The translations under genes were made by a program, and so were the position numbers. This document shows positions 13,449-36,172 of a DNA stretch of 39,389 bases, in pieces. Origin of the DNA: an uncultured Synechococcus sp. (GTDB lineage: Bacteria; Cyanobacteriota; Cyanobacteriia; Phormidesmidales; Phormidesmidaceae). The stretch's first letter is position 1; each line of letters starts with the position of its first letter. The stretch lies in contig CALDSK010000140.1 in NCBI GenBank assembly GCA_937911865.1, forward strand, positions 1 through 39,389. The letters run 5' to 3'. The notes beneath the pieces are model-generated. The model saw only the letters and a list, made by a program, of their open reading frames with translations, did not search any database and had not been told where the DNA came from.

Positions 13449-13472
13449 GCCGAACTGCCGCAGACCACCAAT

Positions 13473-15368: not shown

Positions 15369-15400
15369 CTTTTTGTGGTTGTAATTTTACTAGCACCCTA

Positions 15401-15462
15401 AAGAGAAGCCAGAGAGAAAACAAAGAAGCCAAAGAGAAAACAGCGAAGGAGCCGGAGAGAGA
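15401..15462. repeat. Purine-rich tandem repeat of about 20-21 nt x3 filling the OCD-ACAD spacer
   Basis: The units are AAGAGAAGCCAGAGAGAAAAC, AAAGAAGCCAAAGAGAAAAC and AGCGAAGGAGCCGGAGAGAGAA. The last unit supplies the GGAG Shine-Dalgarno for the ATG at 15463. Confidence 0.75.
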
Positions 15463-16614: not shown

Positions 16615-16628
16615 GGGGGCGAGTGGTA

Positions 16629-18290: not shown

Positions 18291-18386
18291 CAAGATGTAG
18301 CTAAGACTCATATATTGATTGCCACAAATAGCCAAAAACTCTCTTTTCCCTTTTTCTAATCGATTTTTTAATCTCCTAACTTTCTC

Positions 18387-18626
18387 ATGGATAATCAAGA
18401 AATTCTGAAAAAATTTATCAGTGAAGATCTACTCAACAGTCGTCAGCGGGTTGAGGCGGATGACGATTTGCTTGGTGAAGAGATTATTGATTCTATGGGG
18501 GTTATGCGACTTGTGGCGTTTGTAGAAGAGACGTTCTCCTGCAAAGTTCCTCAGTCTGACATCACAATTACTAACTTTCGCACTATTAAGGCGATTGACA
18601 CCTATCTGGCCGCTAGGAGCCTGTAA
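18387..18626 (+). CDS. Stand-alone acyl/peptidyl carrier protein
   Basis: 79 aa with the phosphopantetheine-site context EEIIDSMGVMRLVAFVEE (DSxG-type Ser). Confidence 0.8.
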   Translation: MDNQEILKKFISEDLLNSRQRVEADDDLLGEEIIDSMGVMRLVAFVEETFSCKVPQSDITITNFRTIKAIDTYLAARSL

Positions 18627-18631
18627 CGATT

Positions 18632-20983
18632 ATGATGGCCGCTTCACCCTCTACCAGCTCTTCTACTACGTTGAATTCGCGATTTGATCTGACAACGGCG
18701 CAACGGCTGCTGTGGTTAGGGCAAAAGCTCGTGCCAGAATCGCCGCTGTACAATATGGCGTTTTTGTTTACGCTGGGCGGTAAGGTGGACGCTGGGCACT
18801 TTCAGGCCGCTTTTCAGGCGGTGGTAGACCGGAGCGATACGCTGCGGACCGTGATTGATGAAGCGAGTGGTACGGCCAAGCAGCAGGTGCTGCCACCCTT
18901 TGATTTTCGGCTGCTGGTTTTGGACTTTAGCGCGCAGGAGAATCCGGTGGCGGCGGCGCGTGACTGGGCTGAGGTGAGGGTGCGATCGCCTTTTGATCTG
19001 TCTCAGTGTTTATTTGATACCGCGCTGATTTATCTGGGTCAAAATCGGACCGTTTGGTATCTCAATCAGCACCATCTGATTACCGATATTTCATCGGTGA
19101 AGCAGCTGGTTGAAACGGTAGGAGAGTTCTATGCGCGATCGCTTTCTGGCACATTACAAACGGCTAATCCGCTAACCCCTTACGCTGCTCTCGATCTGCC
19201 TACCCCCTCTACTCGTTGTATTGACTACTGGCGAGCGTGTGAGCTGCAGCCAGTGGCCCTATATCATCGAAGCGCTGAGACTATTTCTGCTAGAACCCGG
19301 CGCGTGCACTGTGAGATAGATGAAAAGAGAACGGCAGCGCTAAAAGAACTGTCAATGCATTCATCGGCGGCGGCTTTGACACCTGCGCTTTCTCTTTTTA
19401 ATTTGGTGGCGGGGCTGCTGTTTGCCTATCTCTATCGGGTTAGTGTCCAAGGTCAGGGTCGTCAGCAGCTGGCGATCGCAACCCCTGCGCATGGTAGACC
19501 CACCAAGGCACTGAAAGAAACGCTGGGCGTGTTTATAGAGCTGTTCCCGCTATTAAGTGAGATAGAAGAATCGGAAACGTTTTCTTCTCTGCTAGCGAAG
19601 GTGCGCGAGGCGAGCGGTGCCCTTTTACGACATGCTGAGCCCGGTGCGAGTGAGTTTGCGCCGAGCCGAGATGTGAACGTGGTGCTAAATTTTATTCCTG
19701 CTCAGCTTTCAGATTTTGCGGGGATGTCGGTACGCTCTGAATGGATTCACGCTGGCGCAGGCGATCCGCGTCATCACCTGCGCTTGCAAGTGCATGATTT
19801 CGATGGGCGAGGACGATTGCAGCTGCACTTTGACCTGAACGAAGATTTATTTGAAAGAGAATTGCAAGACCGGGTGCCAACTCACTTTTTAGCGCTGGTA
19901 GATGCGGTGCTAGCAGATCCTGAGCAGCTGATTTCGAGCGTGGATTTGTTGGGAGATGAGGAGCGATCGCAGCTTGCAGCGCTAGGCTCTTGTAAACCCG
20001 TCAACGCCGACGTAACGGTGGTTGAGTCGTTTGAGCAGACGGTGCAACAGAATGCCAGTGTGACGGCTGTGATCTGTGGTGCTGAGTCGTTGACCTACGA
20101 ACAGCTGAACGCGCAGGTGAATCGACTGGCGAGCTATTTGCGATCGCAAGGTGTGAGTACAGAAATTCCGGTCGGTATTTGCCTGCGTCGCTCAACAGAG
20201 ATGCTGATTGCCGTACTGGCCGTGCTTAAAGCGGGCGGTGCCTACGTGCCTATTGAGCCGAGCCATCCGGTTGAAAGAATCTCCTATATTTTGGAAGATA
20301 TGCAGATTGGCTGGGTGCTGACACACTCTGCTTTAACCGACCGACTGATTGGGAAGGCGCAGCTGATTGCGTTAGATGCAATAGAGCTGAGCCACTGGTC
20401 TGACACCGACCTAGACAGCTCTCCGCAGCCGCAAAACCTTGCTTACTTACTGTACACATCTGGTTCTACCGGTCAGCCAAAAGGAGTCGCCGTTGAGCAC
20501 CGTAATTTAGCAAATTATGTGCAGTGGGCTATTTCAAAGTATGTCCGCGGACGACAGCTTTCGTTCCCGCTGTTTTCTCCGCTAGCCTTTGACCTAACGG
20601 TTACTTCTATCTTTGTGCCCTTGCTATCTGGCGGGCAGGTTGTTGTTTACCCCGATAGCGACGAGCCGCTCGATCTGTCTTTGCAGCGAATTGTTCAAGA
20701 GAATGCTGTGGATGTTATTAAGCTGACGCCTTCTCATTTGGCTTTGATCCAGGGTATGCGTTTGGGCTCTCGGCTGAAGACGTTGATATTAGGAGGGGAA
20801 GATCTAAAGTCTGCGCTGGCTAGTGCGATCGCCTCAAGCAGTCAACAGCCTTTAGAAATCTATAACGAGTACGGCCCCACGGAAGCAACGGTGGGCTGCA
20901 TGATTCATTCGTTTGACTCTGAAGATAAGGCCGCATCCGTCCCGATTGGTCAGCCTGCGGCGGGCTCAGAGATTTATTTGTAA
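18632..20983 (+). CDS. NRPS module 1, part 1: starter-type C domain plus A domain through motif A5, ended by an in-frame TAA
   Basis: The C domain has [14 protein letters not shown]...SPLYNM and HHLITDISS (19070). The A domain has [16 protein letters not shown] and [10 protein letters not shown]. The ORF stops at 20981-20983 inside the expected Y(L/V)LD...PVP segment. Confidence 0.85.
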   Translation: [783 protein letters not shown]

Positions 20984-21001
20984 GATAAAGCGTTAAACCG
21001 G

Positions 21002-24000
21002 GTGCCGCTAGGAGCGGTGGGAGAGATTTTTATTGGTGGGCCTGGGTTAGCGCGAGGCTATTTTAACCGGGATGAGCTAACGGCTGAGCGGTTTGTTGAT
21101 TGGCGAGGAAAACGCCTGTACCGAACGGGAGACTTGGGCCGATGGCGAGAAAGCGATCGGTGGCAAGAAAGCGTTTTGCTGTACCTAGGGCGAGGCGATC
21201 GCCAAGTGAAAATTCGCGGACACCGGGTGGAGCTAGGAGAGATTGAGGCGGCGGTAGCCGCGCATCCGCGGGTGAGTGCGAGCGCGGTAAGTGTGGTGCA
21301 TCCGGTACAGGTAGAGCCGCCGGTATCGCTAAGCTACTGTACGCGCTGTGGATTGGCGTCTAACTATCCTGGCGTGAGCTTTGATGCGGCAGGCGTGTGT
21401 GATGTGTGCCGCGCGTATGAAACCTATAAGAACAGGACCGAACAGTATTTTCGTGAGATGGATGGGCTGCGTTGTCGGCTGGAGACTGCCCGTGCGAAAA
21501 AGACAGGTGACTACGACTGTATGATGCTGCTCAGCGGTGGTAAAGACAGTACTTATGCCCTGGCTCAGCTGGTGCAAATGGGTTTGAAGGTTTTCGCCTT
21601 TACCCTGGATAATGGCTATATCTCTGACGGTGCGAAAGAGAACATTCGGCGAGTGGTAGAAGCGTTGACTGTAGATCACGTTTTTGGTACGACGCCTGCC
21701 ATGAACGAGATTTTTGTGGATAGCCTAGAGCGGCACTGTAACGTGTGTAATGGCTGCTTCAAGACCATCTATACGCTGAGTATGAAGATGGCCTACGACA
21801 TGGGCATTCCGGTGATTGTAACCGGGCTTTCAAGAGGGCAGTTTTTTGAAACTAGGCTGAGTGAAGAATGGTTTACAGAGCTGTTTGGTCAGCCAGAGTT
21901 TAACCCAGATACGATTGATGAAACGGTGCTAGAAGCGCGGAAGGTCTATCATCGCAGCGATGATGCGGTCTCTCAGCTGATGGACGTTGAGGTGTTTCAA
22001 TCGGATGATATTTTTGAGGCGATTGAGATTGTTGATTTTTATCGGTATTGCGATGTAAGGCTAGCAGAGATGATGGCTTTTTTGCGCGATCGCCTGCCCT
22101 GGATTCGCCCTGCCGACACGGGCCGCTCCACCAACTGTCTGATCAACAATGCGGGTATTTATGTGCATACGCAGCAGCGCGGCTATCACAACTATGCGCT
22201 GCCCTACAGCTGGGATGTGCGCATGGGGCATAAAACGGTTGACGAATGCATTGATGAACTCAATGACGAGATTAATGTCAGTGAAGTTAAGCAGATTTTG
22301 AAAGAGATTGGCTACGACGCCCAGCGAACGACAGAAGCACAGCTGGCTGCTTACTACTGCGCCGCAGATGAACTTTCAGCAGCAGAGCTAAGAACGTTTC
22401 TCTCGCAGCGCCTGCCAAGCAATTTGGTCCCGGCTTACTTTGTTCCTGTGGAGCAGATGCCGCTGACTAAAAACGGCAAGGTTGACTATGCGGCCTTGCC
22501 AGCGCCGCAGACCCGTCGCTCAGAATTGCAGGCCGACTATGTTGCCCCGCAGACCGCTACAGAGAAGCTTCTGGTAAAGCTGTGGCGACAGGTGCTGAAG
22601 GTCGATAGAATTGGCATTCACGACAACTTTTTTGATCTGGGTGGCGATTCAATTATGGCGATTCAGATTGCAGCGAGACTGTCGGAAGCAGGATTTGGAC
22701 TGTCGCCCAATCAGATTTTTCAATATTCAACAATTGCTGAGCTGGTTACGGTGATGATGCGTGAAAGCAGTCTGGAACCCGAAGACTTGACTGGCAACGT
22801 GCCGCTAACGCCGATTCAACAGACATTTTTTGAGCTGGAATCTCCCGAGCCTGAGCAATTTACACAAACCGTGCTTTTGACGGTTAGTGAGTCGCTAAAT
22901 TTTGATAGCTTACGCGCGGCCGTGAAGGCTCTGGTGGACTATCACGCCAGTTTGCGTTTGAGCTATCAACTCTGGAAAGGTCAGTGGCGTCAGCGCTATC
23001 AGCAGACGGTAGAGGCGGAGCAGGTTTCTTGGGTAAATCTGTCGGATGCTGCTGTGGCGGAGGAAGCGGTTGGTGATGCGATCGCTTCTCTGCAAACGCA
23101 GCTAAATCTAGCCGACGGTGATTTGTTACGAGTAGCGCTATTTGATTTAGGCGATGTTCAGCAGCTAGGCATTGTGATTCATCATTTAGCGGTAGACGCC
23201 GTGTCCTGGCTGACGCTGTTAAAGGATTTGGAAACTCTGTATCGGCAGATAAATGAGGGAGAAGACATTGCTCTGCCGCCGAAGACGAGCTCTTTTAAGG
23301 CTTGGGCAGAGGGGCTTACGAAGGTTGATCTAGACGCACAGGAGAAAGCGTATTGGGAGAATCTATTCTCTTTAGAAGAATCCGAAGAAGAAGCTGAGCA
23401 TCACCATTCAGGGGCTATCTTTGAGCAAGACAACTCGACCGGTAATGTGACCAGACAGCTAGATAAGCCAGCAACGCAGGCATTTTTACAGGACTCGAAC
23501 CGAGATCGCCCGCAAGAGAAACTGCTAGCGGCGCTAACGTTAGCGGCTACGCAGTTGTTTGATTGTTCCAGTATTCGCCTGGATATGGAAGGCCATGGAC
23601 GAGAAGATGCTTTAGTGCCAGGGGCTCGGCTGGTGAGAACAGTCGGGTGGTTTACGTCGCTGTTTCCGGTTGTGCTGACGGCTGAGCCTGATTCAGCTAG
23701 CACGTTGAGAGCGGTGAAAAAGACGCTACGCAGCATACCACAGCACGGCATTGGCTATGGCATACTGCGATATTTTGGCGATGAGGAGACACAGACTAAA
23801 TTAAGAGAGCAACCTGAGTCGAAGATTCTGTTTAACTATCTGGGCGATTTGGAACAGCTGCTGCCAGCTGGTTCGATGTTTTCGCTGGTAGCGCCTTTGC
23901 GGGTGTCGCGTAGCGCTTTACAGCAGCGATCGCACCCTATAGACATCAGCGCTTTTATTCTTGATGGTCAGCTGCAAATCGACTGGTGCTACAGCGGCGT

Positions 24001-24175
24001 CAAGGCTGAAACCGTTGAAAAGCTAGCTGACGACATGATGGCCCAGCTACAGCTGTTAGGGGCAGGCCCAACAGAAGCGCCGATTGCAGAAGACTTTCCG
24101 CTGGCGAATCTCGACAGTCAAAAGATGGACAAGCTATCCACTTTGCTCGGCCAGCTAGATGGGTTGGAGGATTAA
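21002..24175 (+). CDS. NRPS module 1, part 2: A6-A8, embedded PP-loop domain, A9-A10, PCP, epimerisation domain
   Basis: It is in the same frame as 18632..20983, and codons 20984-21001 are open. Motifs: [14 protein letters not shown] (A6), YRTGDL (A7), [20 protein letters not shown] (A8), insert, [25 protein letters not shown] (A9/A10), FFDLGGDS (PCP). E-domain motifs are [20 protein letters not shown] and EGHGRED. Confidence 0.85.
   Translation: [1057 protein letters not shown]
21302..22339 (+). other. Zinc-ribbon plus PP-loop ATP-pyrophosphatase domain (N-acetyl-sugar-amidotransferase-like) inserted between A8 and A9 of the module-1 A domain
   Basis: [24 protein letters not shown], then the PP-loop LLSGGKDS (21533-21550), a second Cys cluster CNVCNGC, and ...[13 protein letters not shown]...PYSWDVRMG. 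The insert is flanked by the A8 strand AVSVVH and the A9-proximal strand LAAYYC. Confidence 0.7.
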
Positions 24176-24178
24176 GCG

Positions 24179-27034
24179 ATGAAAAACGTTGCTGATATTT
24201 ATCCGCTTTCGCCTGTACAGCTCGGTATGTTGTTTCATACGCTCGCCGAAGGTGAGCCCGAGTCGTCTGGCGTGTATGTGAACCAATATACCTGCGAGCT
24301 AAAGGGTGTACTACAGCTACCTTTGTTTCAGCAGGCCTGGCAGCAAACGATAGAGCGACATCCGGTGCTGCGAACGGCGTTTTTGTGGGAAGGGTTAGAC
24401 GAGCCGTTGCAGGTGGTGCGCCAGCAGGTGAACTTGCCCTGGCAGATGTTGGATTGGACGGGTGAAGAGAATTGGGAGAAGCGGATAGAAGCCTTTTTGA
24501 GCGGCGATCGCGCCAAGGGTTTTAACCTGGCTAAAGCGCCTCTGCTGCGACTAACCCTCATTCAGCGAAATGAAGAGATAATCCAACTGATATGGACTTC
24601 TCACCATATGCTATTTGACGGCTGGTCTTTGCCTTTGATTTGGCAAGATATGCTGGCGTACTATGAGGCTTTGCTAAAAGAGAGAACACCACAGCTAGAG
24701 CGCGTTAGGCCCTACCGGGACTATATTGCCTGGCAGCAAACCCAGAAGAAAGCAGACTCTGAACAGTTTTGGCGATCGCAGCTCGAAGGCTTTACTGAGC
24801 CAACGCCTTTACCGGCTGTGCTAACAGCTGGGCATAAGGTTTTTCAAGATAAGGTCTCTCAGGGCTATCAACAACAGTCTAAACAGATAGAAATTAAGCC
24901 ACTGACCGAGTTCGCTAGGTCTCAAAGACTAACGCTAAATACGCTTGTGCAAGGGGCCTGGGCACTGCTGTTACATCACTACAGCAGCAAAGCGCAGGTG
25001 ATGTACGGTTCGGTGGTGTCTGGGCGACCTGCCGCGCTTCAGGGCGTTGAGAAGATGGTGGGACTGTTTATTAATACGCTGCCCGTGCTGGCCAGCATTG
25101 ATACCGAAAAATCTGTTGTCGATTGGCTGAAAGATTGTCAACAGCAGCAGCTTAGCCTGAGGGACTATGGAACGGCTGCGCTGAGTGATTTACAGCAGTG
25201 GAGTGATTTGCCAGCAGGTAGTTCACTGTTTGAAAGTATTGTCGTATTTGAAAATTATCCGACAGCAGAGGCCCCTGAGCTGGGGTTTACGGTAGAAAAT
25301 GCTCGCTACTTGGAGCAAAGCAATTACCCGCTGGCGCTGCTGGTTGTTCCGGGTGAATCCTTAGAGCTGATATTGCTACACGATGCGACGAGGTTTGAGC
25401 GTGGTGCGATCGCTCGCCTACTCGAACATCTAGAACTGTTGCTCACTGTATTTCTACAACAGCCCAACTCAAAACTCTCCAATTTGCCTCGACTAACGCT
25501 TACGGAACAACAAGAAATAGACAGCTGGCTACACGCCCATCATCAGAATTCGACGTCGTCGGGTTTACTGATTCATCACATGATTGAAGCGCAGGTCGTC
25601 AAGACACCAAACGCCGAAGCGGTTGTCTTCAACGGCAAATCTTTGACCTACGAAGAATTGAATCAACAGGCAAATCAGTTGGCCTACGAGCTGCGATCGC
25701 GTGGCGTTACCCCTGGCACCTTTGTAGCAGTGTGTCTTAACCGCTCCGTAGACATGGTGGTGTGCACTTTAGCCATTCTCAAAGCGGGCGGTACCTATGT
25801 ACCTCTAGATCCGACCTATCCTGCAGAGCGACTTGCCTATTGCCTGCAAGACACCGCCCCAAAAATAATCTGCACCGACCGTTCTGTTAATGTGCCTTCT
25901 GAGTCGATTCCTTGTCTTTTTGTCGATGACCCTACCCTCTACACTCATCCAATAGAAAACCTGCCAAATCTGTCGCAGTCTAGCGACCTAGCGTATGTAA
26001 TCTACACCTCGGGCTCCACCGGTCAGCCCAAAGGGGTAATGGTGACCCATCAGAACCTAGTAGCCTCTACAGAAGCGCGGTTTACGGTTTATCCAAACAG
26101 CGTTGAGCGCTTTCTTTTACTGTCTTCTATTGCGTTCGATAGTTCTGTTGCTGGTCTGTTTTGGGCATTGTGCCAGGGTGGAGCGCTGGTTGTTGCGCCT
26201 GAGCGCATTGAGCAAGATTTACATCAGCTGTCTAACTTGATAGAAAAAGAGAGAATTACGCATACGCTTTGCGTACCCACGCTTTACGGCTTGCTGATAT
26301 CACAGAATACCCTGACTCAGCTTTCGACCTTGAAAACGGTAATCGTGGCGGGTGAAGCCTGCACTAGGGCTTTAGCCGTGCGGCATTATGCAAAGCTGCC
26401 GCAGGTAGTGCTATGGAATGAATATGGGCCCACAGAAACAACCGTATGGTGTACGGCCTACCGGGTTCCGCCTGCGTTATCGCCTGGACCTGTGGCGATT
26501 GGCTCAGCGATTCCGGGTGTGCGCATTTTGTTGTTGAATGAACAGCGCCGGATAGTGCCTGCTGGCGGTATTGGTGAAATTCACGTGTGTGGTGCTGGCG
26601 TGAGTCAGGGGTACTTGAATCAGCCGGAGCGGACGGAGCAGTCGTTTTTCGCGTCTGCTCAGCTGAGTGAGAAGGTCTTGTCTAAAACACCTTTCTCGCT
26701 GTATAAAACAGGAGATTTGGGGCGCTACAGGGCAGACGGTACGCTGGAATGGTTGGGGCGCTCAGACCGGCAGGTGAAGATTCGTGGGTATCGGATTGAG
26801 CTAGGAGAGATTGAGGAAGTGCTGCGATCGCAACCCAGCATCAAAGAAACCGTCGTCGTTGCTCGCACTACAGCTGCTGCTGCCGAGAGTGTTGCAAGTG
26901 GACGTGCTGAAAGTGGACGTGCTGAAAGTGGAAATGTTGAAAGTGGACGTGTTGAAAGTTTAGCGGAAGCTCTTCTATCCCTCCCGCCTGACGAGGCCGA
27001 GGCGCTTTTAAGTGCGGTTGAGGGAACGGGTTAG
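24179..27034 (+). CDS. NRPS module 2, part 1: C domain (follows an E domain, DCL-like) plus A domain that ends after motif A8
   Basis: The C domain has [13 protein letters not shown] and HHMLFDGW (24602). The A domain has A3 [14 protein letters not shown], A5 [10 protein letters not shown], A6 [14 protein letters not shown], A7 YKTGDL and A8 [20 protein letters not shown], then [9 protein letters not shown]. A (SGRAE)-type repeat and a short acidic helix precede the TAG stop. A9, A10 and a PCP are absent. Confidence 0.85.
   Translation: [951 protein letters not shown]
26897..26956 (+). repeat. In-frame 15-nt tandem repeat x4 (AGTGGACGTGCTGAA and variants; [20 protein letters not shown]) in the C-terminal tail of NRPS 24179..27034
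   Basis: Four adjacent units at 26897, 26912, 26927 and 26942, read directly. Confidence 0.9.
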
Positions 27035-27036
27035 CT

Positions 27037-28431
27037 ATGGCGCATATTGTTTGCATTACGGGTGGGCTAACAGGGATTTTTAACGCGAGTCTGGCGCTGG
27101 TGGAGCAGCTGGTGCAAGCGGGTCACCGGGTCACCTACGCAAGCCCGGCAGATTGGCGGGCTGCGGTAGAAGCCGAAAGCTTTGAGACTAAAAAGATTGA
27201 ATATGTGCAGCTAGATGAGTGGGTGATTCAGTTTGCAGAACCGCCTATGAGTCGTTGGGAGAAGCTGAAGAAGATGCGATCGCGACAGCAGTCAGCGGTT
27301 GCTGCTTTGGGCGTGCAGAATTTTGTAAGTACGATGCGATCGCTCTCTCCAGACCTGATATTAATCGATATTGAAATGCATCCGCATATCATGGCGGCTG
27401 TTAGTGCGGGGCTACCGGTTGCTTCGCTGTGTCAATTTTTGTCTGTGTGGCATCGGCCCAATCTACCGCCGACTCATACAGGGACTATTCCTGGTGTTGG
27501 CTGGAGAGGCCATCGGCTCGGTATTGAGCTGAGCTGGCTACAATACAGCTGGCAAAAGTGGAAAACTGCCCAACGCGAACGATGGCAGCGTATGGGCGTC
27601 GATCGAATTTCTGTGCTGCGCTGCTACGCCAAACAGCTGAAGCATCCCTTTTGCGAACAGTTTGGATTCTCTCAGTGGTTAGTGCCCTACCCTCACCGAA
27701 ATCTTCCCGTCCTTTGCCTTAACGCCAGTGAACTAGACTTTCCTCACAGTCTTCATCCCTGTATGAAATATGTTGGCGCGATGGTGAAAGAGAATCGAAA
27801 AGCGGTTCAGCTATCACCCATCGTTCGAGCTGAAGTAGAACAGCTGCTGAAAAAACGACAGCCAGGCCGACCGCTGATTTACTGCGGCTGTAGTACCTTT
27901 ATTAAAGGGAATAAGAGATTTCTGCTACAGCTGATAAAAGCTGTTGAGCAGCAGCCAGACTGGGACCTGGTTTTAGGCCTGGGTGGTCAGCTAGATCCGG
28001 GTGAGCTAGGTGAGCTGCCTGGTAATGTACGTGTGTTTGATTGGGTGCCGCAAATGATGCTTTTGCAGCAGGCCAGCTGTGCGATCAACAACGGGGGCAT
28101 TAACAGTATTAACGAATGCCTGCACCTTGGGGTGCCCATGCTGGTGTACTCGCTCAAACGCTATGACCAGAACGGTAACGCGGCCAGGGTGAGTTATCAC
28201 GGATTAGGGATAGCAGGTGATTTTGAGCAGGACAGCGCAGGGCAGATTCGACAGCATTTGCAGCGGCTGCTGAGTGAAGAACGGTATCGGCAGGCGGCGG
28301 AGAATATGCGCGATCGCTACCACCAATACCACCGTGAGCAACGAGCCGTTCGATGTGTAGAAGAGTTGCTGAAAAGTGCTCGGCTGCAAGATAACAAGCA
28401 TCAGGAGGCCAGTCAGCATGTCTCAGCCTAG
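27037..28431 (+). CDS. GT1-family (MGT/UDP-glycosyltransferase-like) glycosyltransferase
   Basis: C-terminal nucleotide-sugar motif VPQMMLLQQASCAINNGGINSINECLHLGVPMLVYSLKRYDQNGNAARV. The N-terminal IVCITGG...LVEQLVQAGHRVTYASP fits. The start lies 2 nt after the NRPS stop. Confidence 0.8.
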   Translation: MAHIVCITGGLTGIFNASLALVEQLVQAGHRVTYASPADWRAAVEAESFETKKIEYVQLDEWVIQFAEPPMSRWEKLKKMRSRQQSAVAALGVQNFVSTMRSLSPDLILIDIEMHPHIMAAVSAGLPVASLCQFLSVWHRPNLPPTHTGTIPGVGWRGHRLGIELSWLQYSWQKWKTAQRERWQRMGVDRISVLRCYAKQLKHPFCEQFGFSQWLVPYPHRNLPVLCLNASELDFPHSLHPCMKYVGAMVKENRKAVQLSPIVRAEVEQLLKKRQPGRPLIYCGCSTFIKGNKRFLLQLIKAVEQQPDWDLVLGLGGQLDPGELGELPGNVRVFDWVPQMMLLQQASCAINNGGINSINECLHLGVPMLVYSLKRYDQNGNAARVSYHGLGIAGDFEQDSAGQIRQHLQRLLSEERYRQAAENMRDRYHQYHREQRAVRCVEELLKSARLQDNKHQEASQHVSA

Positions 28432-29221
28432 CTATATTATTTGTTCTACGGTTCGCTCGGGCAGTACTCTGCTCGCCAGAACGCTGTCTGGGCTGGACGG
28501 CTGCGGTCAGCCAGAAGAGTCTTTTCACCGCCATATTATTCGACAAAAGCAGCTCAACCAAAGCTCAAAGAAGTTTATAGATTATTGTCAGGCAATTGTT
28601 GAAGCCAGCGTGAGAAAGGATGACGCCTTGGGTATAAAGCTTCACTGGTGGCAGCTGCGTGATTTTTTGATGCTTGCTAGACAGGCCGCCGATAGCGACA
28701 CAAGCCTGTCAGACCTGGCAGTGTTAGAGCAGTTTTTCCCTAATTTGAAGTTTGTTTATCTCTCAAGAGAGGATCGGGCAGCTCAGGCGGTGTCGGCTGC
28801 GATCGCCAGTCAAACCGGCCTTTGGGAAAAGAATGTCAGCATACCTGCGCCCACCGCAAAATTTCAGCCCTGGAAAATCTACGAGTGGGAGACCGCCCTA
28901 ACTGAGCAGCATCAGAACTGGCAGACCTTCTTTCAACAAAATAGTATTACGCCGTATCAACTCACCTATGAACAGCTGGTCTCAGCTTTTTCGCAGCAAA
29001 TCTCCCAGATAGTCGAGTATCTAGACCTGCCTGTAACACCATCCCCGGATGATATAGACATGCCCGTTCAGCGACAGGCTAACGCCAACAATCAACGCCT
29101 GATTAAGCAATACCAGCAGCTACCCAAGCCACTCAGCGCGGCATCTCTTTGGCTCTATCGTCAGCTAAAACCTTCGTCACAGCCCACTTTGACGGTTAGT
29201 TCGCCGCAGGAGAAAGCCTAA
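28418..29221 (+). CDS. Stf0-type (carbohydrate) sulfotransferase
   Basis: PAPS 5'-phosphosulfate loop STVRSGSTLLARTL and the Stf0-like YLSREDRAAQAVSAAIASQTGLW. ATG 28418 is preceded by AGGAGG (28404-28409) and overlaps the GT 3' end. Its TAA overlaps the next ATG (TAATG, 29219-29223). Confidence 0.8.
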   Translation: MSQPSYIICSTVRSGSTLLARTLSGLDGCGQPEESFHRHIIRQKQLNQSSKKFIDYCQAIVEASVRKDDALGIKLHWWQLRDFLMLARQAADSDTSLSDLAVLEQFFPNLKFVYLSREDRAAQAVSAAIASQTGLWEKNVSIPAPTAKFQPWKIYEWETALTEQHQNWQTFFQQNSITPYQLTYEQLVSAFSQQISQIVEYLDLPVTPSPDDIDMPVQRQANANNQRLIKQYQQLPKPLSAASLWLYRQLKPSSQPTLTVSSPQEKA

Positions 29222-32200
29222 TGACACAATCGCACTCTGACATAACGCAAGAGACTCAAAAGCAAAAGTCTCTAGAACCAGATGCTCTTAAACAAAGGCT
29301 ATCTGCACTATCCGTTCAGCAACGTTCGACACTGGCCAAAAAATTACAGAACCGTGCAGAGGCGAGCTCATCTTCTGCGAGTGCTTCTCAGCAGCTCGTG
29401 GCCTATGTATTGCCTGCTGAGCCCACTGTAGCGATAGATCCCTCTGAAATTAAGGCTGCCCTAAAGGAACAGCTGCCTGCCTACATGATGGTCTCTGCGC
29501 TGGTGCCGCTAGCAGACTTTCCACGAACGGCGAATGGAAAAATCGATGTAAACGCACTGCCCGCACCCGCTTCTCCTGTCAACACTCAGACCGTCTCACC
29601 GCCAACTACCCCTGAGGAGAAAACGCTAGCTGATATTTGGCGTGCGGTGCTAGGTCAGCCTACTGTGGGCATTCACGACAATTTTTTTGAGCTGGGCGGC
29701 GATTCTATTCTCAGCATTCAAATTGTTTCTAAGGCGAGAGAGGCAGGCTTGCGGTTAGCACCCAATCAACTGTTTGAGCAGCCTACGGTGGCTGAGCTGG
29801 CGGCAGCGGTGAATGCTGTTCCGGCGGTGAGGGCGGCGCAGTCTGTGGTGAGTGGTCCGGTTCCACTGACACCCATTCAGCGTTGGTTTGTAGAACAGAA
29901 GATGGCGGTGCCCTATCACTGGCATCAGGCGAGGCTGTTTCAGCTGTCAGCAGATGCTGATATTGAGCGGGTGAAAAGCGCGATCGCAATGCTATGGCAG
30001 CATCACGATGCACTTCGACTGCGCTTTACGCCTGAGGGGCAGCAAACGAATGCTGATATCGAACCTGCGCCAACCTGTTTGGAAATAGATATCTCGGCGC
30101 TAGATGCGGCGGGGCAAAGCGCTGCGATCGCCCGGCACGGTAGTGAGCTACATGCAAATTTGCGATCGCCTGATACCCCTCTCATGCAGGCCGCCTATTT
30201 CAATCGTGGCAAGGCTCAGTCTAACTGGCTGCTACTGAGCCTGCACCACTGGATAGTCGATACTGTCTCCTGGCAGATTATCCAAAATGATTTAGAAAAA
30301 CTGTTAGGTGCAACCGATCCTCAAGCGCAAAGTCTTCCTGAGAAAACAACTTCATTCAAGCAATGGGCTGAAACACTCCTCGCACAGGCTAATTCAAGAC
30401 AGGCTGAAGCTAGCTTTTGGTACGAGCAGGTAGAATCGTCAGCGATTGAAATCCCCGGTGCTACTGCGAAAACTACGCCAACAGAATCAACAACGGGTGA
30501 AGTGGTTACAGCGCTCTCTGAGGAGCACACGCAGCTACTGCTACAGTCTGTTCCTGCTGCCTACAACACTCAAATCAACGATGTTTTACTGACCGCGCTA
30601 ACAAAAACACTACTGCAGTGGGTGAATAAGACTGCTGGCAGTGTGCTGATAGCGTTAGAAGCTCATGGCCGTGAGGCGATCGCAGAGAGTGTAGATCTCT
30701 CTCGTACGGTGGGATGGTGTACAACAACTTATCCGGTTCGCTTGAGCATAGAAGAAGCCCCGAATTGGGGAGTGGCGCTTAAGGCTGTGAAAGAACAGCT
30801 GCGCCAGGTGCCTGATCGTGGCATTGGCTATGGGTTGCTGCGGTATTTAACCACTGGAGACGAGACTCAGGCGATGCGTCAGCGACTGGCGCAGGCGGCT
30901 TCTCCTAGTGTGCTGTTTAACTATTTAGGACAATATTCTTTAGGACAATATTCTAAAGGCGATGGCGTTGCTGAAAACGCGGCGCTGAAGCTGCTGCCTG
31001 ACGTTGACGTAGGTGTACTACGCAGCCCGCTAAATAAGCGTGACTATCTGCTAGAGATTAATGCTGTTGTGAGTCGCGGTCAGCTTCAGTGCAGCTGGCG
31101 CTATGATGAAACGCTTTATTCGGCTGAAACCATAGCGCACTTGGCTTATCAATATCTAGAAGCGCTGACGGCACTGATTGCCCACTGCACAGGGACTGAA
31201 GAGACTGGATTCACACCGTCGGATTTTCCAGATGCAGGGCTGACGCAAGCTGAGCTAGATGCGTTTATCGCTCAGCTGATAGATAGCTCAGCTGTGAGCG
31301 CAAAGCAGCAGGTTGCATCGATTTATCCTTTGGCCTCTTTGCAGCAGGCTTTCTTGTGGCATAGCTTACAGACTTCTGCTGCGGCTGGACTGCTCCACAT
31401 GCGCTGCACGCTGCATGGTGAAGTCGATACGACGCTTTTTCAGCGGGCCTGGAATACGGCTGTCGCTGGCCACCCAGTTTTACGAACCTCTGTGCACTGG
31501 GAGGGTGTGAAGCGGCCTTTGCAGGTGGTGGCCCAGCAGGTAAATCTGCCTGTGGCTGTCCTAGACTGGCGAGATAATGTGTCAGTTGAGCGCCAGATAG
31601 AAGACTTTTTACAGGAGGATAGCGATCGCAGCTTCATCCTCACCCAAGCCCCCATCTCTCGTCTAACGCTCATTCGCACAGCACAGACCACTTACGAATT
31701 TATTTGGACCTGTCATCACCTGTTGTTAGACGGCTGGTCTGGCGCTTTGGTGCTCAATCAAGTGATGGAAAGCTACGAGGCGCTGCGTCAAGGCAAGGTG
31801 CTTTCCCCCGCTGCTACGCCAACTTATCAGACCTATATTCGCTGGCAGCAACAGCAAGATGCAGCCGCCGCCAAAGCCTTTTGGCAAAAGACCTTGAGAG
31901 GATTCGCGACGCCAACGCCGCTACCGTTTGTTGATACTTCTGTTGATCTACCTGAAACGGAGCGGCAGGCGGAAGCTGCGGTAGTGCTGACGGTAGAAGA
32001 GACGGCTGCGGTGAATGCGTTTTTGCGATCGCACCGCCTTACGCTAAACACTTTTATGCAGGGCCTCTGGGCACTGACCCTAAACGGCTACAGCCAATCT
32101 TCAGATGTGTTGTTTGGTGCAACTGTGTCTGGCCGTCAGGGCGATTTGGCTGGCGTAGCGTCAACGGTGGGGTTGCTAATCAATGTGCTGCCGATCCGAA

Positions 32201-33936
32201 TGAAGATTTCGGCTTCGATGTCTGCTTTAGATTGGCTACAAAGCTGGCAACAGCAGCAGGCTGAAATGACGCCTTATGCCCATGCTTCGCTTACTGATAT
32301 TCAGGCTTGGTGCGAGCTGTCTGGTCGTCTTTCTGGCCGTCCTTCCGGCCGTCTTTTCGATAGCTTGCTCGTGATTGAAAACTATCCTATGAGTTTGCAG
32401 GCTGACGCTGCCAGCGTCCGGCTAGAAAATATGCGTTCGGGTGTGGTGAGTACCTACGGCCTGACGGTGCTTGTGAAACCAGGCGATGCCCTGACGCTCT
32501 CTATAGCGTCGGCCTATGCAGCGCGATCTGATATCCAAGATGTTTTGCAGCAGTTCCATCAGCTTTTAACCGCTATCGTTACGACACCTACGGCCTCGGT
32601 CGAAGAGGCTGTGGCAGCTGGTGATTTTTCAGCGATCTCTTCACGATCTGCTACGTTACTGGCTTCACCATCAGGCGTGGATGTTCACGCAGATTATCTG
32701 CCAGATCTGAGCCGGGAGGCGCTAGCTGATTCCTTCACCGCGCCTCGTAACTCACTAGAGCTGAGGTTACTTAAAATTTGGTCAGCTGTTTTGGGCCCGG
32801 CTTCTGAGCGGGCCACAGAGGCGCGTGCTGCCAGCCAGCTGACGGTAGAAGATAGCTTTTTCGACTGGGGCGGCAATTCTATGCAGGCCGTACAGCTGTT
32901 TAATCGTATGCAAACAGAACTAGACTGTACGTTACCCATTGCAACCTTATTTCAAGCGCCCAGCGTTCGTCAGTTTGCGGCCTTATTAGCTAAGTCTAAG
33001 GCTGAGGTAGACGGCGGCTCTGCTGCGATTCAATGGTCTAGCCTGGTCCCTGTGCAGCCTAGTGGCACGGAGCGTCCTTTTTTCTTTCATGGCGGCTCAG
33101 CCGATGCGCTGACATGGGCCCGGTTCTCTCAGCTGCTAGGAGCCAATCAGCCCTTTTACGCGTTTCAACGTCCTGATTTAGACGGGCGAGACAGTCTGCC
33201 GCTTACAGTAGAAGCGCTGGCGGCAAACTGCATAGCAGAGCTGCGAAACGTGCAGCCAGAAGGGCCTTATATCCTGGGTGGGCACTGCTTTGGGGGGGCC
33301 GTTGCTTTTGAAATGGCGCAGCAGCTTCAGGCCCAAGGGCAAGCCGTGGCCAGTGTGATTTTGATTGATGCCTATCGCCCTGAGGTACTGCCCAAGACTC
33401 GCCGAATTCAGCTACAAACGCAGCTGAATTTGGGCATTTTCTGGCTGCGCAAAAACTATTATTACTACGGTAATAAAGAGAATATTAGCCGTTTGCCTAG
33501 TCGGCTGTGGCAGCGAATTCGACCTGCTAAAGGCCGCTCAACATTGGCTGCCGAGAAGCCTGCTGTTGTTGAGATCTCTATGCCTTCTGAAACGTCTTCT
33601 GAAGCTTTTTCTGGAGCCTTTTCTGAAGCCAATTCTGAACAGCCTGATGAGATGTCCTATGAGATGCGCTACGAGCGGGCGATCGCAGCGAATGAAATTG
33701 CCGTGGCTCAGTACCAGGCTCAGCCCTACAGCGGCGATCTTAAACTGTTCCGCGCTCGGGTGCAGATGCTCGAATGGTATTTCGGGCTGATGCTGGGCTG
33801 GAACTCTGTGGTAAATGGTAAGCTCTCGGCGTCGGTTATTCCAGGCTTTTTTGGTAATTTATTCAATCAGAGGGCACTGCCGACACTGACGGCGCAGGTT
33901 AAAAAGCATCTGAATACGCTAAAAAGTAGCCTTTAG
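29221..33936 (+). CDS. NRPS: orphan A-domain C-terminal piece (A9-A10), PCP, E, C, PCP, TE-like domain, with no A domain in the last module
   Basis: Residues 57-116 read LVAYVLP...LPAYMMVSALVPLADFPRTANGKIDVNALPAP (A9/A10; Lys codon 29539-29541). The first PCP is FFELGGDS. The E domain has PLTPIQRWF, HHWIVDTVSW (30244) and EAHGREA. The C domain has YPLASLQQAFLWH and HHLLLDGW (31714). The second PCP is FFDWGGNS (Ser codon 32878). The TE has PFFFHGGS... and the elbow GGHCFGG (Cys codon 33286-33288). Confidence 0.85.
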   Translation: MTQSHSDITQETQKQKSLEPDALKQRLSALSVQQRSTLAKKLQNRAEASSSSASASQQLVAYVLPAEPTVAIDPSEIKAALKEQLPAYMMVSALVPLADFPRTANGKIDVNALPAPASPVNTQTVSPPTTPEEKTLADIWRAVLGQPTVGIHDNFFELGGDSILSIQIVSKAREAGLRLAPNQLFEQPTVAELAAAVNAVPAVRAAQSVVSGPVPLTPIQRWFVEQKMAVPYHWHQARLFQLSADADIERVKSAIAMLWQHHDALRLRFTPEGQQTNADIEPAPTCLEIDISALDAAGQSAAIARHGSELHANLRSPDTPLMQAAYFNRGKAQSNWLLLSLHHWIVDTVSWQIIQNDLEKLLGATDPQAQSLPEKTTSFKQWAETLLAQANSRQAEASFWYEQVESSAIEIPGATAKTTPTESTTGEVVTALSEEHTQLLLQSVPAAYNTQINDVLLTALTKTLLQWVNKTAGSVLIALEAHGREAIAESVDLSRTVGWCTTTYPVRLSIEEAPNWGVALKAVKEQLRQVPDRGIGYGLLRYLTTGDETQAMRQRLAQAASPSVLFNYLGQYSLGQYSKGDGVAENAALKLLPDVDVGVLRSPLNKRDYLLEINAVVSRGQLQCSWRYDETLYSAETIAHLAYQYLEALTALIAHCTGTEETGFTPSDFPDAGLTQAELDAFIAQLIDSSAVSAKQQVASIYPLASLQQAFLWHSLQTSAAAGLLHMRCTLHGEVDTTLFQRAWNTAVAGHPVLRTSVHWEGVKRPLQVVAQQVNLPVAVLDWRDNVSVERQIEDFLQEDSDRSFILTQAPISRLTLIRTAQTTYEFIWTCHHLLLDGWSGALVLNQVMESYEALRQGKVLSPAATPTYQTYIRWQQQQDAAAAKAFWQKTLRGFATPTPLPFVDTSVDLPETERQAEAAVVLTVEETAAVNAFLRSHRLTLNTFMQGLWALTLNGYSQSSDVLFGATVSGRQGDLAGVASTVGLLINVLPIRMKISASMSALDWLQSWQQQQAEMTPYAHASLTDIQAWCELSGRLSGRPSGRLFDSLLVIENYPMSLQADAASVRLENMRSGVVSTYGLTVLVKPGDALTLSIASAYAARSDIQDVLQQFHQLLTAIVTTPTASVEEAVAAGDFSAISSRSATLLASPSGVDVHADYLPDLSREALADSFTAPRNSLELRLLKIWSAVLGPASERATEARAASQLTVEDSFFDWGGNSMQAVQLFNRMQTELDCTLPIATLFQAPSVRQFAALLAKSKAEVDGGSAAIQWSSLVPVQPSGTERPFFFHGGSADALTWARFSQLLGANQPFYAFQRPDLDGRDSLPLTVEALAANCIAELRNVQPEGPYILGGHCFGGAVAFEMAQQLQAQGQAVASVILIDAYRPEVLPKTRRIQLQTQLNLGIFWLRKNYYYYGNKENISRLPSRLWQRIRPAKGRSTLAAEKPAVVEISMPSETSSEAFSGAFSEANSEQPDEMSYEMRYERAIAANEIAVAQYQAQPYSGDLKLFRARVQMLEWYFGLMLGWNSVVNGKLSASVIPGFFGNLFNQRALPTLTAQVKKHLNTLKSSL

Positions 33937-34028
33937 ATAAACTGTTCTTGAAGTGTGACCGGAATGTATGCCGTACAGCGTGGTGTGACTGTAAGCTAGG
34001 TTTTTTGCTGAAAGACCCCCTCTTTGCT

Positions 34029-35165
34029 ATGGCTACCCCCACTAAAATCCTTCAAATTGTGCCGCGCATTTCACCGGAAATGGACGGTGTGGGTGAGTAT
34101 TCGCTAAGGCTGTCAAAACGACTGCGCGCGAACCATCAAATTGATTCGGCCTTTTTAGTTGTGCGGCCTAGCGATAAAAATCAGCCGACGCTAGACGGGT
34201 TTGCGGTGCACTGTTTGCGATCGCATACGGTAGATGCCTTTCTAGATCTGGTGCCCTCAGATGTCTCTGCGGTGGTTTTGCAGTACAGCAACTATCCCTA
34301 TCTGCAAGGCAAGCTAGACGCGCCTATGTGGCTAGGTCTGGCGATGAGAAAGCTGAAGGCAAAAGGCATTGTGACCATTGTGATGTTTCATGAGCTGCCG
34401 ACTTTAAAGTATGGTGTGCTGCGTATGCCGAATCCAATTCAAGGACGGCTCTCTCGTGAGCTGGCTCAAGATTCGGACATTTCGCTGACTAACAATGAAG
34501 CGTTTCAAGAGGTTTTAGAAAAGTGGGCCCCACAGCCGGTTCACTGTCTGCCAAATTTTGCGACGATTGGTGAGCCTGATACGGTACTGCCGCTGGCTGA
34601 GCGCGATCGCGCCCTAGTGGTATTTGGCAGTACCGACCGCCGCCGGGTGTATCAAAGCAATTTGCAACAGCTGAAAGAAATTTGCGAACGGCTGCAGATT
34701 CATACGCTGTACGATGTGGGGCGCTCATTAGAGTGGGATTCTGAGAGCCTTGCGCCTACGGTGAAAACGGTGCGCACTGGGATGCTGTCAGATGAAGAGG
34801 TCAGCGCCCTGATGTCAAGATCTTTTGCTGGGGTATTTGACTATCACAGATTTCCGCGTAATTTGGGTAAATCGACGGTGTATGCCGCCTACTGCGCTCA
34901 CGGCCTGCTGCCCATCTGTAACGGTAGCTTTTTACGCCCTCAAGACGGTACAGTTGCCGATACGCACTATGTTGATACCTTTACGCTGCATACTCGCTCT
35001 GCGCAATCATCGACTGACGACTGGCTGCAAACGATTGCGACCAATGCCCACGAGCTGTATCTCACCAGGTCGCTCGACAGCTGCGCCCAAAAGTATGCGC
35101 AGCTAGTGCAATCAACTGAGGCTATGGCGAGTGCCCAGGCAGGTACGCAAGTTTCTATAAGTTGA
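34029..35165 (+). CDS. Putative glycosyltransferase (GT-B fold, GT4/GT1-like)
   Basis: The N-terminal KILQIVPRISPEMDGVGEYSLRLSKRL is typical of GT4 N-termini. The C-terminal half has LVVFGS... and GKSTVYAAYCAHGLLPI in place of the usual E-x7-E region. ATG 34029 is preferred over the longer ORF from 33948. Confidence 0.5.
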   Translation: MATPTKILQIVPRISPEMDGVGEYSLRLSKRLRANHQIDSAFLVVRPSDKNQPTLDGFAVHCLRSHTVDAFLDLVPSDVSAVVLQYSNYPYLQGKLDAPMWLGLAMRKLKAKGIVTIVMFHELPTLKYGVLRMPNPIQGRLSRELAQDSDISLTNNEAFQEVLEKWAPQPVHCLPNFATIGEPDTVLPLAERDRALVVFGSTDRRRVYQSNLQQLKEICERLQIHTLYDVGRSLEWDSESLAPTVKTVRTGMLSDEEVSALMSRSFAGVFDYHRFPRNLGKSTVYAAYCAHGLLPICNGSFLRPQDGTVADTHYVDTFTLHTRSAQSSTDDWLQTIATNAHELYLTRSLDSCAQKYAQLVQSTEAMASAQAGTQVSIS

Positions 35166-35215
35166 TGCGATAAGTTGACGCGGTGACCTAACGCTTTCTC
35201 TAACCGGTGCTAACA

Positions 35216-36172
35216 ATGCAATCGACCGACTACCCAAAACTTTTTGTAGTGGGTTGCCCGCGTTCGGGCACGTCCTGGGTCACTAAACTGATTGCTAGTC
35301 ACCACACTGTTGTTGAAATTCCGATAGAAACTCACGCCTATCCTTTTCTCTATGAGCCGTTTCTGCGGCTGCCAGCTCAAAGACTGCCTTCACGCTTGCG
35401 CTCGTGGAAAGGGATTGTTCGGCGCTATGGCCTTTGGCCTCTGCTACTGGGGTTCGAGTCTTCAGACATCTGGCGAGGAATTCTACGAAATTACGAGATT
35501 CTCAATACAGAAAACAGTCATGGTTTAAGGCTGTTGGCTGACTATTCCACCTTTGAATCATTGTTGCAAACAGCGCAGCTTCGGCCGGGTCCTGATTTGG
35601 AAAAGGCGGAGCAGCTGATTGGTGATTTGTTTGACTTATTTTTTCAGGAAAAAGGGCAGGCGGGCAGCACGCTGCTAGAAAAAACGCCGATGCATATTCG
35701 CTATTGCGATCGCATTCTTCAACGCTTTCCCAACGCGCAAATTATAGAAGTGATTCGCGATGGCCGAGACGTGTGTGCGTCTTTTCAGGCATTGGCCCAG
35801 CAGTTTGCCTGGGCTGATATGGGTACCGCAGCTGTTATGCACCAGTGGAAAAGCTGTATAGCGCTAGGAGAAAAGTGGCGATCGCATTCAGAATTCGCCG
35901 ATAGAATTCACACCGTACGTTTTGAAGCATTGAAGGCAGATGCTGAGGATCAGCTTCAACAGATTTTCTCTTTTGCCAACCTGGATACGACACCGCAACA
36001 GGTGAGCGAGATTGTACAGAGCGCAGATATTCGCCGGGTTAAAGATAAGGGCGAAGGGCAGTATGTGCGTAAAGGAATTGTAGGAGATTGGAAAGAGCGC
36101 CTGTCGGCTGAGGATGTGGCTATGTGTGAGGCGATCGCAGGTGAGCAGCTAAAATATTTAGGCTACATGTAA
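35216..36172 (+). CDS. PAPS-dependent sulfotransferase
   Basis: 5'-PSB loop VVGCPRSGTSWVTKLI and 3'-PB motif IEVIRDGRDVCASF. The C-terminal VRKGIVGDWKERLS is typical of cytosolic-type sulfotransferases. Confidence 0.8.
   Translation: MQSTDYPKLFVVGCPRSGTSWVTKLIASHHTVVEIPIETHAYPFLYEPFLRLPAQRLPSRLRSWKGIVRRYGLWPLLLGFESSDIWRGILRNYEILNTENSHGLRLLADYSTFESLLQTAQLRPGPDLEKAEQLIGDLFDLFFQEKGQAGSTLLEKTPMHIRYCDRILQRFPNAQIIEVIRDGRDVCASFQALAQQFAWADMGTAAVMHQWKSCIALGEKWRSHSEFADRIHTVRFEALKADAEDQLQQIFSFANLDTTPQQVSEIVQSADIRRVKDKGEGQYVRKGIVGDWKERLSAEDVAMCEAIAGEQLKYLGYM

Follow-up and report, generated by a model that had tools for sequence, protein, structure and literature searches.

The 39,389-nt window analyzed here (contig CALDSK010000140.1 of assembly GCA_937911865.1, from an uncultured Synechococcus sp., positions 1 to 39,389) carries on its + strand a nonribosomal peptide synthetase (NRPS) cluster whose last module is built in an unusual way. 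The module (31310-33936) consists of a condensation domain (C3), a carrier domain (T3), and a thioesterase (TE) domain; it has no adenylation (A) domain, and its TE has a cysteine as the putative nucleophile and a phenylalanine where the catalytic histidine should be. From comparisons of sequences and predicted structures, we conclude that 31310-33936 encodes a conserved, apparently functional A-less termination module and that its TE, by a release mechanism that we infer, probably carries out active, Cys-dependent off-loading without a His. The explanation that best covers the whole, to which we assign a probability of roughly 0.45, combines the A-less end module with an active Cys-dependent TE that captures the chain by thiol-thioester exchange and releases it nonhydrolytically. 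The new element, we conclude, is the missing His, which makes this a variant TE and not a new kind of system. TE domains govern the release of nonribosomal peptides from the assembly line and find wide use as biocatalysts for cyclization; a natural His-less Cys/Asp clade, together with the Cys-linked loss of His described below, offers a test case for the role of His in thiol-based TEs and for transfer versus hydrolysis. The clade also marks a cluster family, found in 40+ cyanobacterial genomes, in which one A domain is split by glycosyltransferase (GT) and sulfotransferase (ST) genes and the end module is A-less. Coordinates of all features are collected in Table 1.

Pfam matched just the N-terminal half of its TE profile. 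The AlphaFold2 (AF2) model of the domain (88 homologues) had a mean predicted local distance difference test (pLDDT) score of 87 and the canonical strand order, and Foldseek matched it to many TE structures with a probability of 1.00. In sequence searches of the Protein Data Bank (PDB) and in the Foldseek rankings, AB3403 came top, followed by the TEs of FAS, NocB, Pks13, and EntF. Cys1356 lies in the sequence YILGGHCFGG (33268-33297); it is TE residue 82 and, in the model, follows the strand formed by residues 76-81 and begins a helix. GGHCFGG aligns pairwise with GGWCFGG of AB3403. A sequencing error in the Cys codon was considered and ruled out, the Cys being invariant in orthologues. Asp1383 (TE residue 109) follows the strand at residues 102-108, and its LID pairs with the MID of AB3403; in an 88-sequence alignment, this column holds Asp in 82 of the 88 family members and in all 15 members of the clade to which this TE belongs.

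The third member of the triad is the one that is missing. Phe1544 (TE residue 270), which follows the last strand of the model (261-269) and lies in IPGFFGNLF (33838-33864), was placed in the catalytic-His column by three independent alignments: the pairwise alignment with AB3403, a profile alignment, and the 88-sequence MAFFT alignment. IPGFFGNL pairs with LPGDHSSI of AB3403, so that the second Phe replaces the catalytic His. That column holds His in 67 of 73 relatives outside the clade and Phe, Tyr, or Ala within it, and the lone His downstream of Cys1356, H1563, is eight residues short of the C terminus. An earlier, sequence-only reading of this DNA had placed a Cys at the nucleophile elbow and found no conventionally positioned His; both observations are borne out, and all of the motif coordinates that it gave, including the Cys codon TGC at 33286-33288, are correct.

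Two further features of the domain set the clade apart from its other relatives. One is the K-x-Y-Y-Y motif of the lid; the other is an acid, Glu1518, which follows the strand at residues 233-240 of the model; all 15 clade members have Asp or Glu in its column, and other relatives have Gly or Phe. A third feature, a run of SEAF-like repeats (SETS to SEQP, 33586-33645), is of another kind. It had been read as a repeat-rich lid insertion of about 60 aa, and it proves to be a loop encoded by a 12-nt tandem repeat, lying within a predicted-disordered segment (TE residues 167-199, pLDDT below 50) and not conserved, its length and sequence differing between orthologues.

The open reading frame (ORF) that encodes the module, 29221-33936, reads in order the A9-A10 part of A2 (NGKIDV), T2 (GGDS), an epimerization (E) domain (HHWIVD), C3, T3, and TE. 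Pfam found in it two Condensation, two PP-binding, and one Thioesterase domain, and the sole adenylation signal was a C-terminal A subdomain at the extreme N terminus. The first of the two condensation-type domains is an E domain, as indicated by HHWIVD and by TIGR01720; the module architecture is therefore E followed by DCL-type C-T-TE, and C3 is not the second C domain of the protein, as it had been counted. The active-site motif of C3, HHLLLDGW, lies at 31714-31737 (aa 832; HHLLLDG, 31714-31734). C3 is 40% identical to C2, which likewise follows an E domain, and both open with IYPLxxxQ, which we take to be a DCL-type signature.

From the end of C3 to the first helix of T3 there are only ~40 residues. 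Motifs A3, A7, A8, and A10 were absent between the last HHxxxDG and T3, both here and in 27 orthologues, and the same check did reveal A motifs in three outgroup loci with a full, ordinary C-A-T-TE (L036-L038). The earlier description of the terminal module as C-T-TE without an A domain therefore stands. A deletion artefact of this assembly was also considered as the source of the A-less state and was ruled out, since that state is common to the 27 orthologues. T3 carries the motif FFDWGGNSMQAV (32857-32892; FFDWGGNS), with the phosphopantetheine-attachment residue Ser1220 at 32878-32880. The residue before this Ser varies among orthologues (GGNS, GGDS, GGSS, or GGHS), so GGNS does not have the special standing it had been given; the Ser itself is intact here and invariant in orthologues.

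Conservation of the TE was assessed by several searches. A word-based search of 5.8 billion proteins gave a close TE clade that is cyanobacterial, at 42-58% identity, and GHC[FL]G and PG[FL]FGNLFN were present in every member covering those regions. A genome scan, limited to one genome per species and using patterns that included [IV]PG[LF][FY]GNLF, yielded 43 loci, all cyanobacterial, among them loci of Leptolyngbya sp. Heron Island J, Dapis, Crocosphaera, Okeania, Lusitaniella, and Aerosakkonema. Cultured strains in the family are Leptolyngbya sp. PCC 7375, Adonisia turfae CCMR0081, and Lusitaniella coriacea LEGE 07167. The His-less loop was partly selected for in the scan loci; the word-based search and a search of the full protein library support it independently. 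The scan patterns did not include the Asp, the FHGG[SA]AD oxyanion loop, or the Cys elbow, and these too were invariant in the loci covering those sites. G[FL]FGNLFN appeared again in 17 clusters of a representative library, which comprised the 150 best cluster representatives (50% identity) from 1.84 billion proteins. Altogether, Cys, Asp, and G[FL]FGNLFN are retained at 41-64% overall identity across 40+ cyanobacterial genomes; judged by this pattern, the TE clade is under selection, and its features reflect neither decay nor chance.

The module as a whole is conserved in the same manner. In the 27 orthologous C3-T3-TE regions, HHxxxDG, the T3 Ser, and GGHC[FL]GG were all invariant and no A motifs were present, and in A-less loci C3-T3-TE is often a separate protein of ~850 aa. 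The order of the locus is C2-A2core / GT / [ST] / A2sub-T2-E2-C3-T3-TE / GT4-like / [ST]. Three loci (L002, L025, and L029) end instead in A2sub-T2-TE, the same His-less Cys-TE being joined straight to A2sub-T2. The T domain of these loci retains GGDSI, presumably typical of carrier domains that partner an E domain, and no E domain follows it, which suggests a deletion of E2-C3-T3; by their domain content, these loci look like deletion derivatives.

The Cys nucleophile is common among relatives of this TE, of which there were ~16,000 at E <= 1e-10. The nucleophile was Cys in 45 and Ser in 42 sequences of the 88-sequence alignment, and Cys in ~80 and Ser in ~64 of the 150 representatives. The statement of the sequence-only reading that Cys-TEs are rare is thus locally untrue (45/87 and 80/~145 relatives carry Cys). 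It had also called for the Asp and His of the triad to be located by alignment with known TE families: the absence of a conventional His survived that comparison, and the exceptional status of the Cys did not, the family being one in which Cys is common, an outcome that the reading had itself foreseen as telling against it.

What distinguishes the Cys-TEs is how often they lack the His. In the 88-sequence alignment, His was absent from 0 of 42 Ser-TEs versus 20 of 45 Cys-TEs, and among the representatives it was absent from 1 of 62 Ser-TEs versus 39 of 80 Cys-TEs. The association of His loss with Cys gave a Fisher p value of 2e-11 for the 150 representatives, and of 3e-5 when the clade was collapsed to one event and seven "GH" cases were counted as a His shifted by one position; cluster representatives are not phylogenetically independent, and these values are indicative only. 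Where this clade has Phe for the His, other lineages have Arg, Gln, Tyr, or Asn, and given such varied replacements the pattern in the His column looks like repeated loss rather than a single relocation. Conceivably, a switch from Ser to Cys as the nucleophile is what lets TE domains drop the catalytic His.

Neither a His-less NRPS TE nor this cluster family turned up in literature searches. Cys-TEs have been described as a rare class, ~2% of known TEs, with poorly understood catalytic requirements (PMC13288461). In MacB-TE, Cys89 is indispensable, and the H218A and D116A substitutions reduce amine-mediated macrocyclization and are not reported to abolish it (PMC13288461); for SulM, a base is said to be unnecessary for the sulfamate nucleophile (PMC11298585). 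This published work fits a lesser dependence of thiol-based TEs on the triad. Among the relatives, one independent His-less Cys-TE, P0026, sits in an aminosugar/polysaccharide locus, and three TEs with Cys and His (P0054, P0059, and P0082) are fused to sulfotransferase domains, forming ST-TE didomains like CurM-type olefin-forming modules.

The closest solved system is AB3403 of A. baumannii (PDB 4ZXH/4ZXI), which resembles this TE in having Cys in GGxCFGG, Asp at the usual place after beta6 (PMC11298585), an FH..GG oxyanion loop, and a lid that is about as long. It differs in that it retains the canonical His (LPGDHSS) and that its module includes an A domain (C-A-T-TE). ObiF1 (beta-lactone), SulM (beta-lactam), and MacB-TE (macrolactam) share with this TE the Cys nucleophile and the NRPS type I TE fold and give nonhydrolytic release; they have a complete Cys-His-Asp triad, whereas this TE has no His. 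In the ObiF1 and SulM TEs, the triad Asp is found instead in the loop that follows beta7 ("position II"), and the nucleophile of SulM lies in Gln-Cys-Asn (PMC11298585). In the clade, the Asp of position I is invariant, an Asp/Glu also appears to follow beta7, and the nucleophile is flanked as His-Cys-Phe/Leu in all members, not as in the Gln-Cys-Asn of SulM. Searched by itself, the TE matched 43 solved sequences (E <= 0.01), which included neither ObiF1 nor SulM; ObiF1 surfaced only in a profile search that also took in A and T domains. The link to ObiF1 and SulM drawn in the sequence-only reading is accordingly not upheld: the Asp follows beta6 (Cys+27), the nucleophile lies in His-Cys-Phe, and the TE alone matches neither enzyme.

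A-less C-T-TE modules loaded in trans are known from AmbE (AMB synthesis in Pseudomonas aeruginosa) and from the last module of SyrE (syringomycin), both with TEs that have ordinary Ser triads; their carriers are charged by an A domain or a shuttle whose gene lies elsewhere in the cluster. The present module is like these in being a C-T-TE without an A domain and in having an intact C motif and carrier Ser. It is unlike them in that two proteins share the upstream A domain and that there is no SyrC-like free shuttle gene. Unlike SyrC and CmaE, the TE is fused C-terminal to the carrier in all loci and is not free-standing. The Pks13 TE of Mycobacterium, an acyltransferase that transfers mycolate to trehalose, is a relative in fold; it has a Ser-His-Asp triad, and its acceptor is a sugar. 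Here, a sugar acceptor is hypothetical, and the cluster has a homologue (the Stf0-like gene) of the trehalose 2-sulfotransferase Stf0.

How T3 is loaded was approached through gene content. Two complete orthologous clusters (L048 and L049), bounded by unrelated genes beyond their edges, have the order HupE-ACAD-freeA-PCP-[C-A-T]-[C-A / GT / (ST) / Asub-T-E-C-T-TE], where ACAD is an acyl-CoA-dehydrogenase-type gene and PCP is a small carrier protein, and contain three A enzymes and four carrier domains. With three A enzymes for four carriers, T3 must, on this gene content, be loaded in trans, as the sequence-only reading had proposed. No A domain was present downstream of the TE in ~30 loci, and none was seen in three genomes just outside the cluster, the location that had been suggested as a check on that proposal. 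The likely loaders can be ranked, tentatively, as the split A2 directly upstream, the free-standing A enzyme, and A1. A2 stands first because it is already a noncovalent split enzyme beside T3. Free A enzymes of the ACAD-A-PCP type are generally selective for their own small carrier protein, and for this reason the free A enzyme is placed below A2.

The gene that follows the TE encodes a protein (360-400 aa) with a predicted GT4 (GT-B) fold. Nearly all of 43+ loci have such a gene next after the TE, and so do outgroups L036-L038, which share none of the remaining synteny. The family has 113 members in the 5.8 billion proteins, and the named ones are all cyanobacterial. The AF2 model had a pLDDT of 93.5, and Foldseek returned the retaining GT4 enzymes MshA, BshA, PimA, and GlgM at 12-15% identity. 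Pfam matched no more than the N-terminal GT4 domain, and weakly; it did not find the Glycos_transf_1 donor domain, NCBIfam gave no match, and a profile of the family yielded nothing useful against PDB sequences. The GT-B assignment is made because the fold search showed it where sequence searches did not. On visual inspection, K-S-T-V-Y-A-A-Y stands where an E-x7-E region would be usual, and the protein may differ from a standard nucleotide-sugar transferase. Invariant residues include H122, E123, R205, D230, K282, and H292. A DegT-type sugar aminotransferase is added in several loci.

Taken together, our preferred explanation would run as follows. T3, which has no A domain of its own, would be charged in trans by one of the cluster's three A enzymes; the basis for this step is that C3 and T3 are intact by sequence and conservation. 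Judging from its domain type, C3 would then join the D-configured chain of T2/E2 to the unit on T3. The chain would move from T3 to Cys1356 by thiol-thioester exchange, chemistry that should need no His, and the acyl-S-Cys would be resolved by a nucleophile other than His-activated water, most likely an amine or an activated group. The outcome would be nonhydrolytic: aminolysis, transfer, or cyclization. The composition of the active site (Cys1356 and Asp1383 kept, Phe1544 for His) is the observation on which this step turns. Finally, the GT4-fold protein, which is coinherited with the TE clade, could supply or position the acceptor. In a more specific form, which we consider rather doubtful, the TE clade would be peptidyl transferases and not hydrolases, capturing the chain as a Cys thioester, as in ubiquitin E2, and handing it on to an amine or hydroxyl group on a sugar-bearing acceptor that the GT4 partner would provide. 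If true, this would be a new NRPS off-loading logic, by which marine filamentous cyanobacteria would make peptides that are glycoconjugated at the C terminus and partly sulfated.

Several points weigh against our explanation or parts of it. Two His-less Cys-TEs, P0385 and P0440, have no sugar genes in their context, and because of these two the idea of a sugar acceptor is not generalized. The whole cluster is syntenic, so adjacency of the TE and GT4 genes could be mere conserved gene order. The A1 gene of this copy has an in-frame stop (see below), and the pathway may be inactive in this organism; our conclusions on the TE draw on the orthologues no less than on this copy. Lastly, an alternative base may be present, for which Glu/Asp1518, Lys1411, Tyr1413-1415, Asn1546, and His1355 (beside the Cys) come into consideration. 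This last point leads to the view that the enzyme works as a conventional TE, hydrolytic or macrocyclizing, with another residue as its general base (the clade-specific Asp/Glu after beta7, a lid Tyr, or Lys1411, giving Cys-acid-Lys as in the nitrilase superfamily) and a free acid or a lactone/lactam as its product. The persistence of Asp1383 without a His partner speaks for it, as do the clade-specific invariants at TE positions Lys 137, Tyr 139-141, Arg 209, Asp/Glu 244, Asn 272, and Asn 275. We nevertheless consider it unlikely: the His is replaced by a hydrophobic Phe here and by Arg, Gln, or Tyr elsewhere, with no single recurrent alternative, which argues that the base was lost and not relocated.

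SyrC and CmaE are free-standing Cys shuttling enzymes, and the TE might likewise be an aminoacyl/acyl shuttle that takes a unit from another carrier as a Cys thioester (for example, from the free PCP loaded by the free A enzyme) and delivers it to the A-less T3. Such a role would explain both oddities at once, an A-less T3 fused to a Cys alpha/beta-hydrolase without a water-activating His, and all complete clusters seen contain a free A enzyme with its PCP. However, the same TE clade ends modules that have their own A domain (L002, L025, L029, and outgroups L036-L038), where a shuttle would be needless, and no other release enzyme is conserved in the clusters; a shuttle is therefore distinctly improbable. 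We see similarly poor odds for a dead pseudo-TE kept for structure or docking, with release by another enzyme or spontaneously. The incomplete canonical triad and the Pfam match to only half of the profile would be expected of such a domain, but Cys, Asp, the oxyanion loop, and G[FL]FGNLFN would hardly stay invariant at 41-64% overall identity in it; the nucleophile is normally lost in dead domains, and an alternative release enzyme is not conserved. Very improbable indeed is a Cys-TE that, like ObiF1 or SulM, forms a strained beta-lactone or beta-lactam ring and in which a nucleophile made by a sulfotransferase might spare the base. The Cys, the two sulfotransferase genes of the cluster (28376-29221 and 35207-36172), and the clade's extra acid after beta7 are compatible with this idea, and the SulM sulfamate needs no base (PMC11298585). 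Against it stand the Asp at position I, His-Cys-Phe in place of Gln-Cys-Asn, the presence of His in ObiF1 and SulM, the lack of a match of the TE alone to either, and the absence of sulfotransferases from several loci with the same TE (for example, L002, L022, L025, L029, L036-L038, and L040).

Table 1. Features of the termination module, its TE active site, and the surrounding NRPS cluster in the 39,389-nt window
Feature	Position	Strand	Remarks
TE domain, type I thioesterase fold, AB3403-like subfamily	33043..33933	+	Pfam PF00975, E 2e-23
Cys1356 (TGC), nucleophile elbow GGHCFGG after beta5	33286..33288	+	
Asp1383 (LIDAY), acid at Cys+27, after beta6	33367..33369	+	ordinary "position I"
K-x-Y-Y-Y lid motif (Lys1411, Tyr1413-1415), clade specific	33451..33465	+	invariant in clade, absent from other relatives
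12-nt tandem repeat, SEAF-like lid loop	33585..33639	+	Tandem Repeats Finder (TRF), 4.6 copies
Glu1518 (Asp in most orthologues), clade-specific acid just past beta7	33772..33774	+	
GFFGNLFN loop after beta8	33844..33867	+	Phe1544 (33850-33852) fills catalytic-His column
C3, DCL-type condensation domain	31318..32622	+	Pfam Condensation, aa 700-1134
C3-T3 linker, short, no adenylation domain	32623..32733	+	
T3 carrier domain, no cognate A	32734..33006	+	Pfam PP-binding
GT4-fold (GT-B) gene directly after TE	34026..35165	+	candidate partner; mechanical ORF starts at TTG 33948
HupE/UreJ-like membrane protein	12936-14228		5' edge of cluster
Ornithine-cyclodeaminase-family (OCD) gene	14232-15368	+	
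Acyl-CoA-dehydrogenase-type (ACAD) gene	15463-16614	+	top families PigA, RedW L-prolyl-PCP dehydrogenases, under cutoffs
Free-standing A enzyme	16623-18290	+	candidate trans-loader of T3; found in complete orthologous clusters
79-aa carrier protein (PCP)	18387-18626	+	cognate of free-standing A
C1-A1-T1-E1	18632-24175	+	PP-loop domain inserted in A1 between A8 and A9
C2-A2core	24179-27034	+	Stachelhaus code DSALIAEVW; A split after A8; candidate trans-loader of T3
GT1-family glycosyltransferase gene	27037-28431	+	
Stf0-like sulfotransferase gene	28376-29221	+	
1571-aa NRPS ORF	29221-33936	+	A(sub)-T-E-C-T-TE
Second sulfotransferase gene	35207-36172	+	

Within the cluster, A2 is divided over two proteins (24179-29565), with the GT1-family and Stf0-like genes lying between its parts and A9-A10 at the start of the ORF that follows. 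This split, GT gene included, is kept in ~35 cyanobacterial loci, and independent gene calls agree on it. A1 has an in-frame TAA at 20981-20983, in its core between A5 and A6 (SEIYL, stop, DKALNRVPLGAVGEIFIGG). The ORFs on both sides of this codon share one frame, and the L001 orthologue is called as a single 1799-aa protein; on this evidence, the TAA would be a recent nonsense mutation, a base-call error, or a site of read-through. The Stachelhaus-type code of A1 is DLTKIGEVG, which we take to be Asn-like; those of A2 and the free A enzyme are DSALIAEVW and DMLYLGVQC.

The OCD and ACAD genes, the free A enzyme, and the 79-aa PCP (14232-18626) look, from their families, like a proline-to-pyrrole-2-carboxyl starter cassette, which would feed the divergent starter domain C1 (HHLITDISS). 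ACAD-A-PCP is present again in both complete orthologous clusters inspected (L048 and L049); among the loci inspected, the OCD gene occurs only in this window and in L003. The insert in A1 is a PP-loop ATPase domain of ~350 aa (SGGKDS; 21287-22321, inside ORF 21002-24175) whose top family is the WbuX N-acetyl-sugar amidotransferase (E 2.5e-34, under the cutoff). It may convert a side-chain amide to an amidine, and we know of no other PP-loop-type insertion in an A domain. The HupE/UreJ-like gene is split here into two ORFs (12936-13448 and 13473-14228), and its orthologues in L048, L049, and L003 are one gene of ~405 aa. Short in-frame tandem repeats (12-15 nt) are scattered over the NRPS genes (30924-30954, 32320-32356, and 33585-33639), and low-complexity loops derived from repeats occur in the free A enzyme (VTRSVTRSVTR) and at the end of A2core (GRAESGRAESG).

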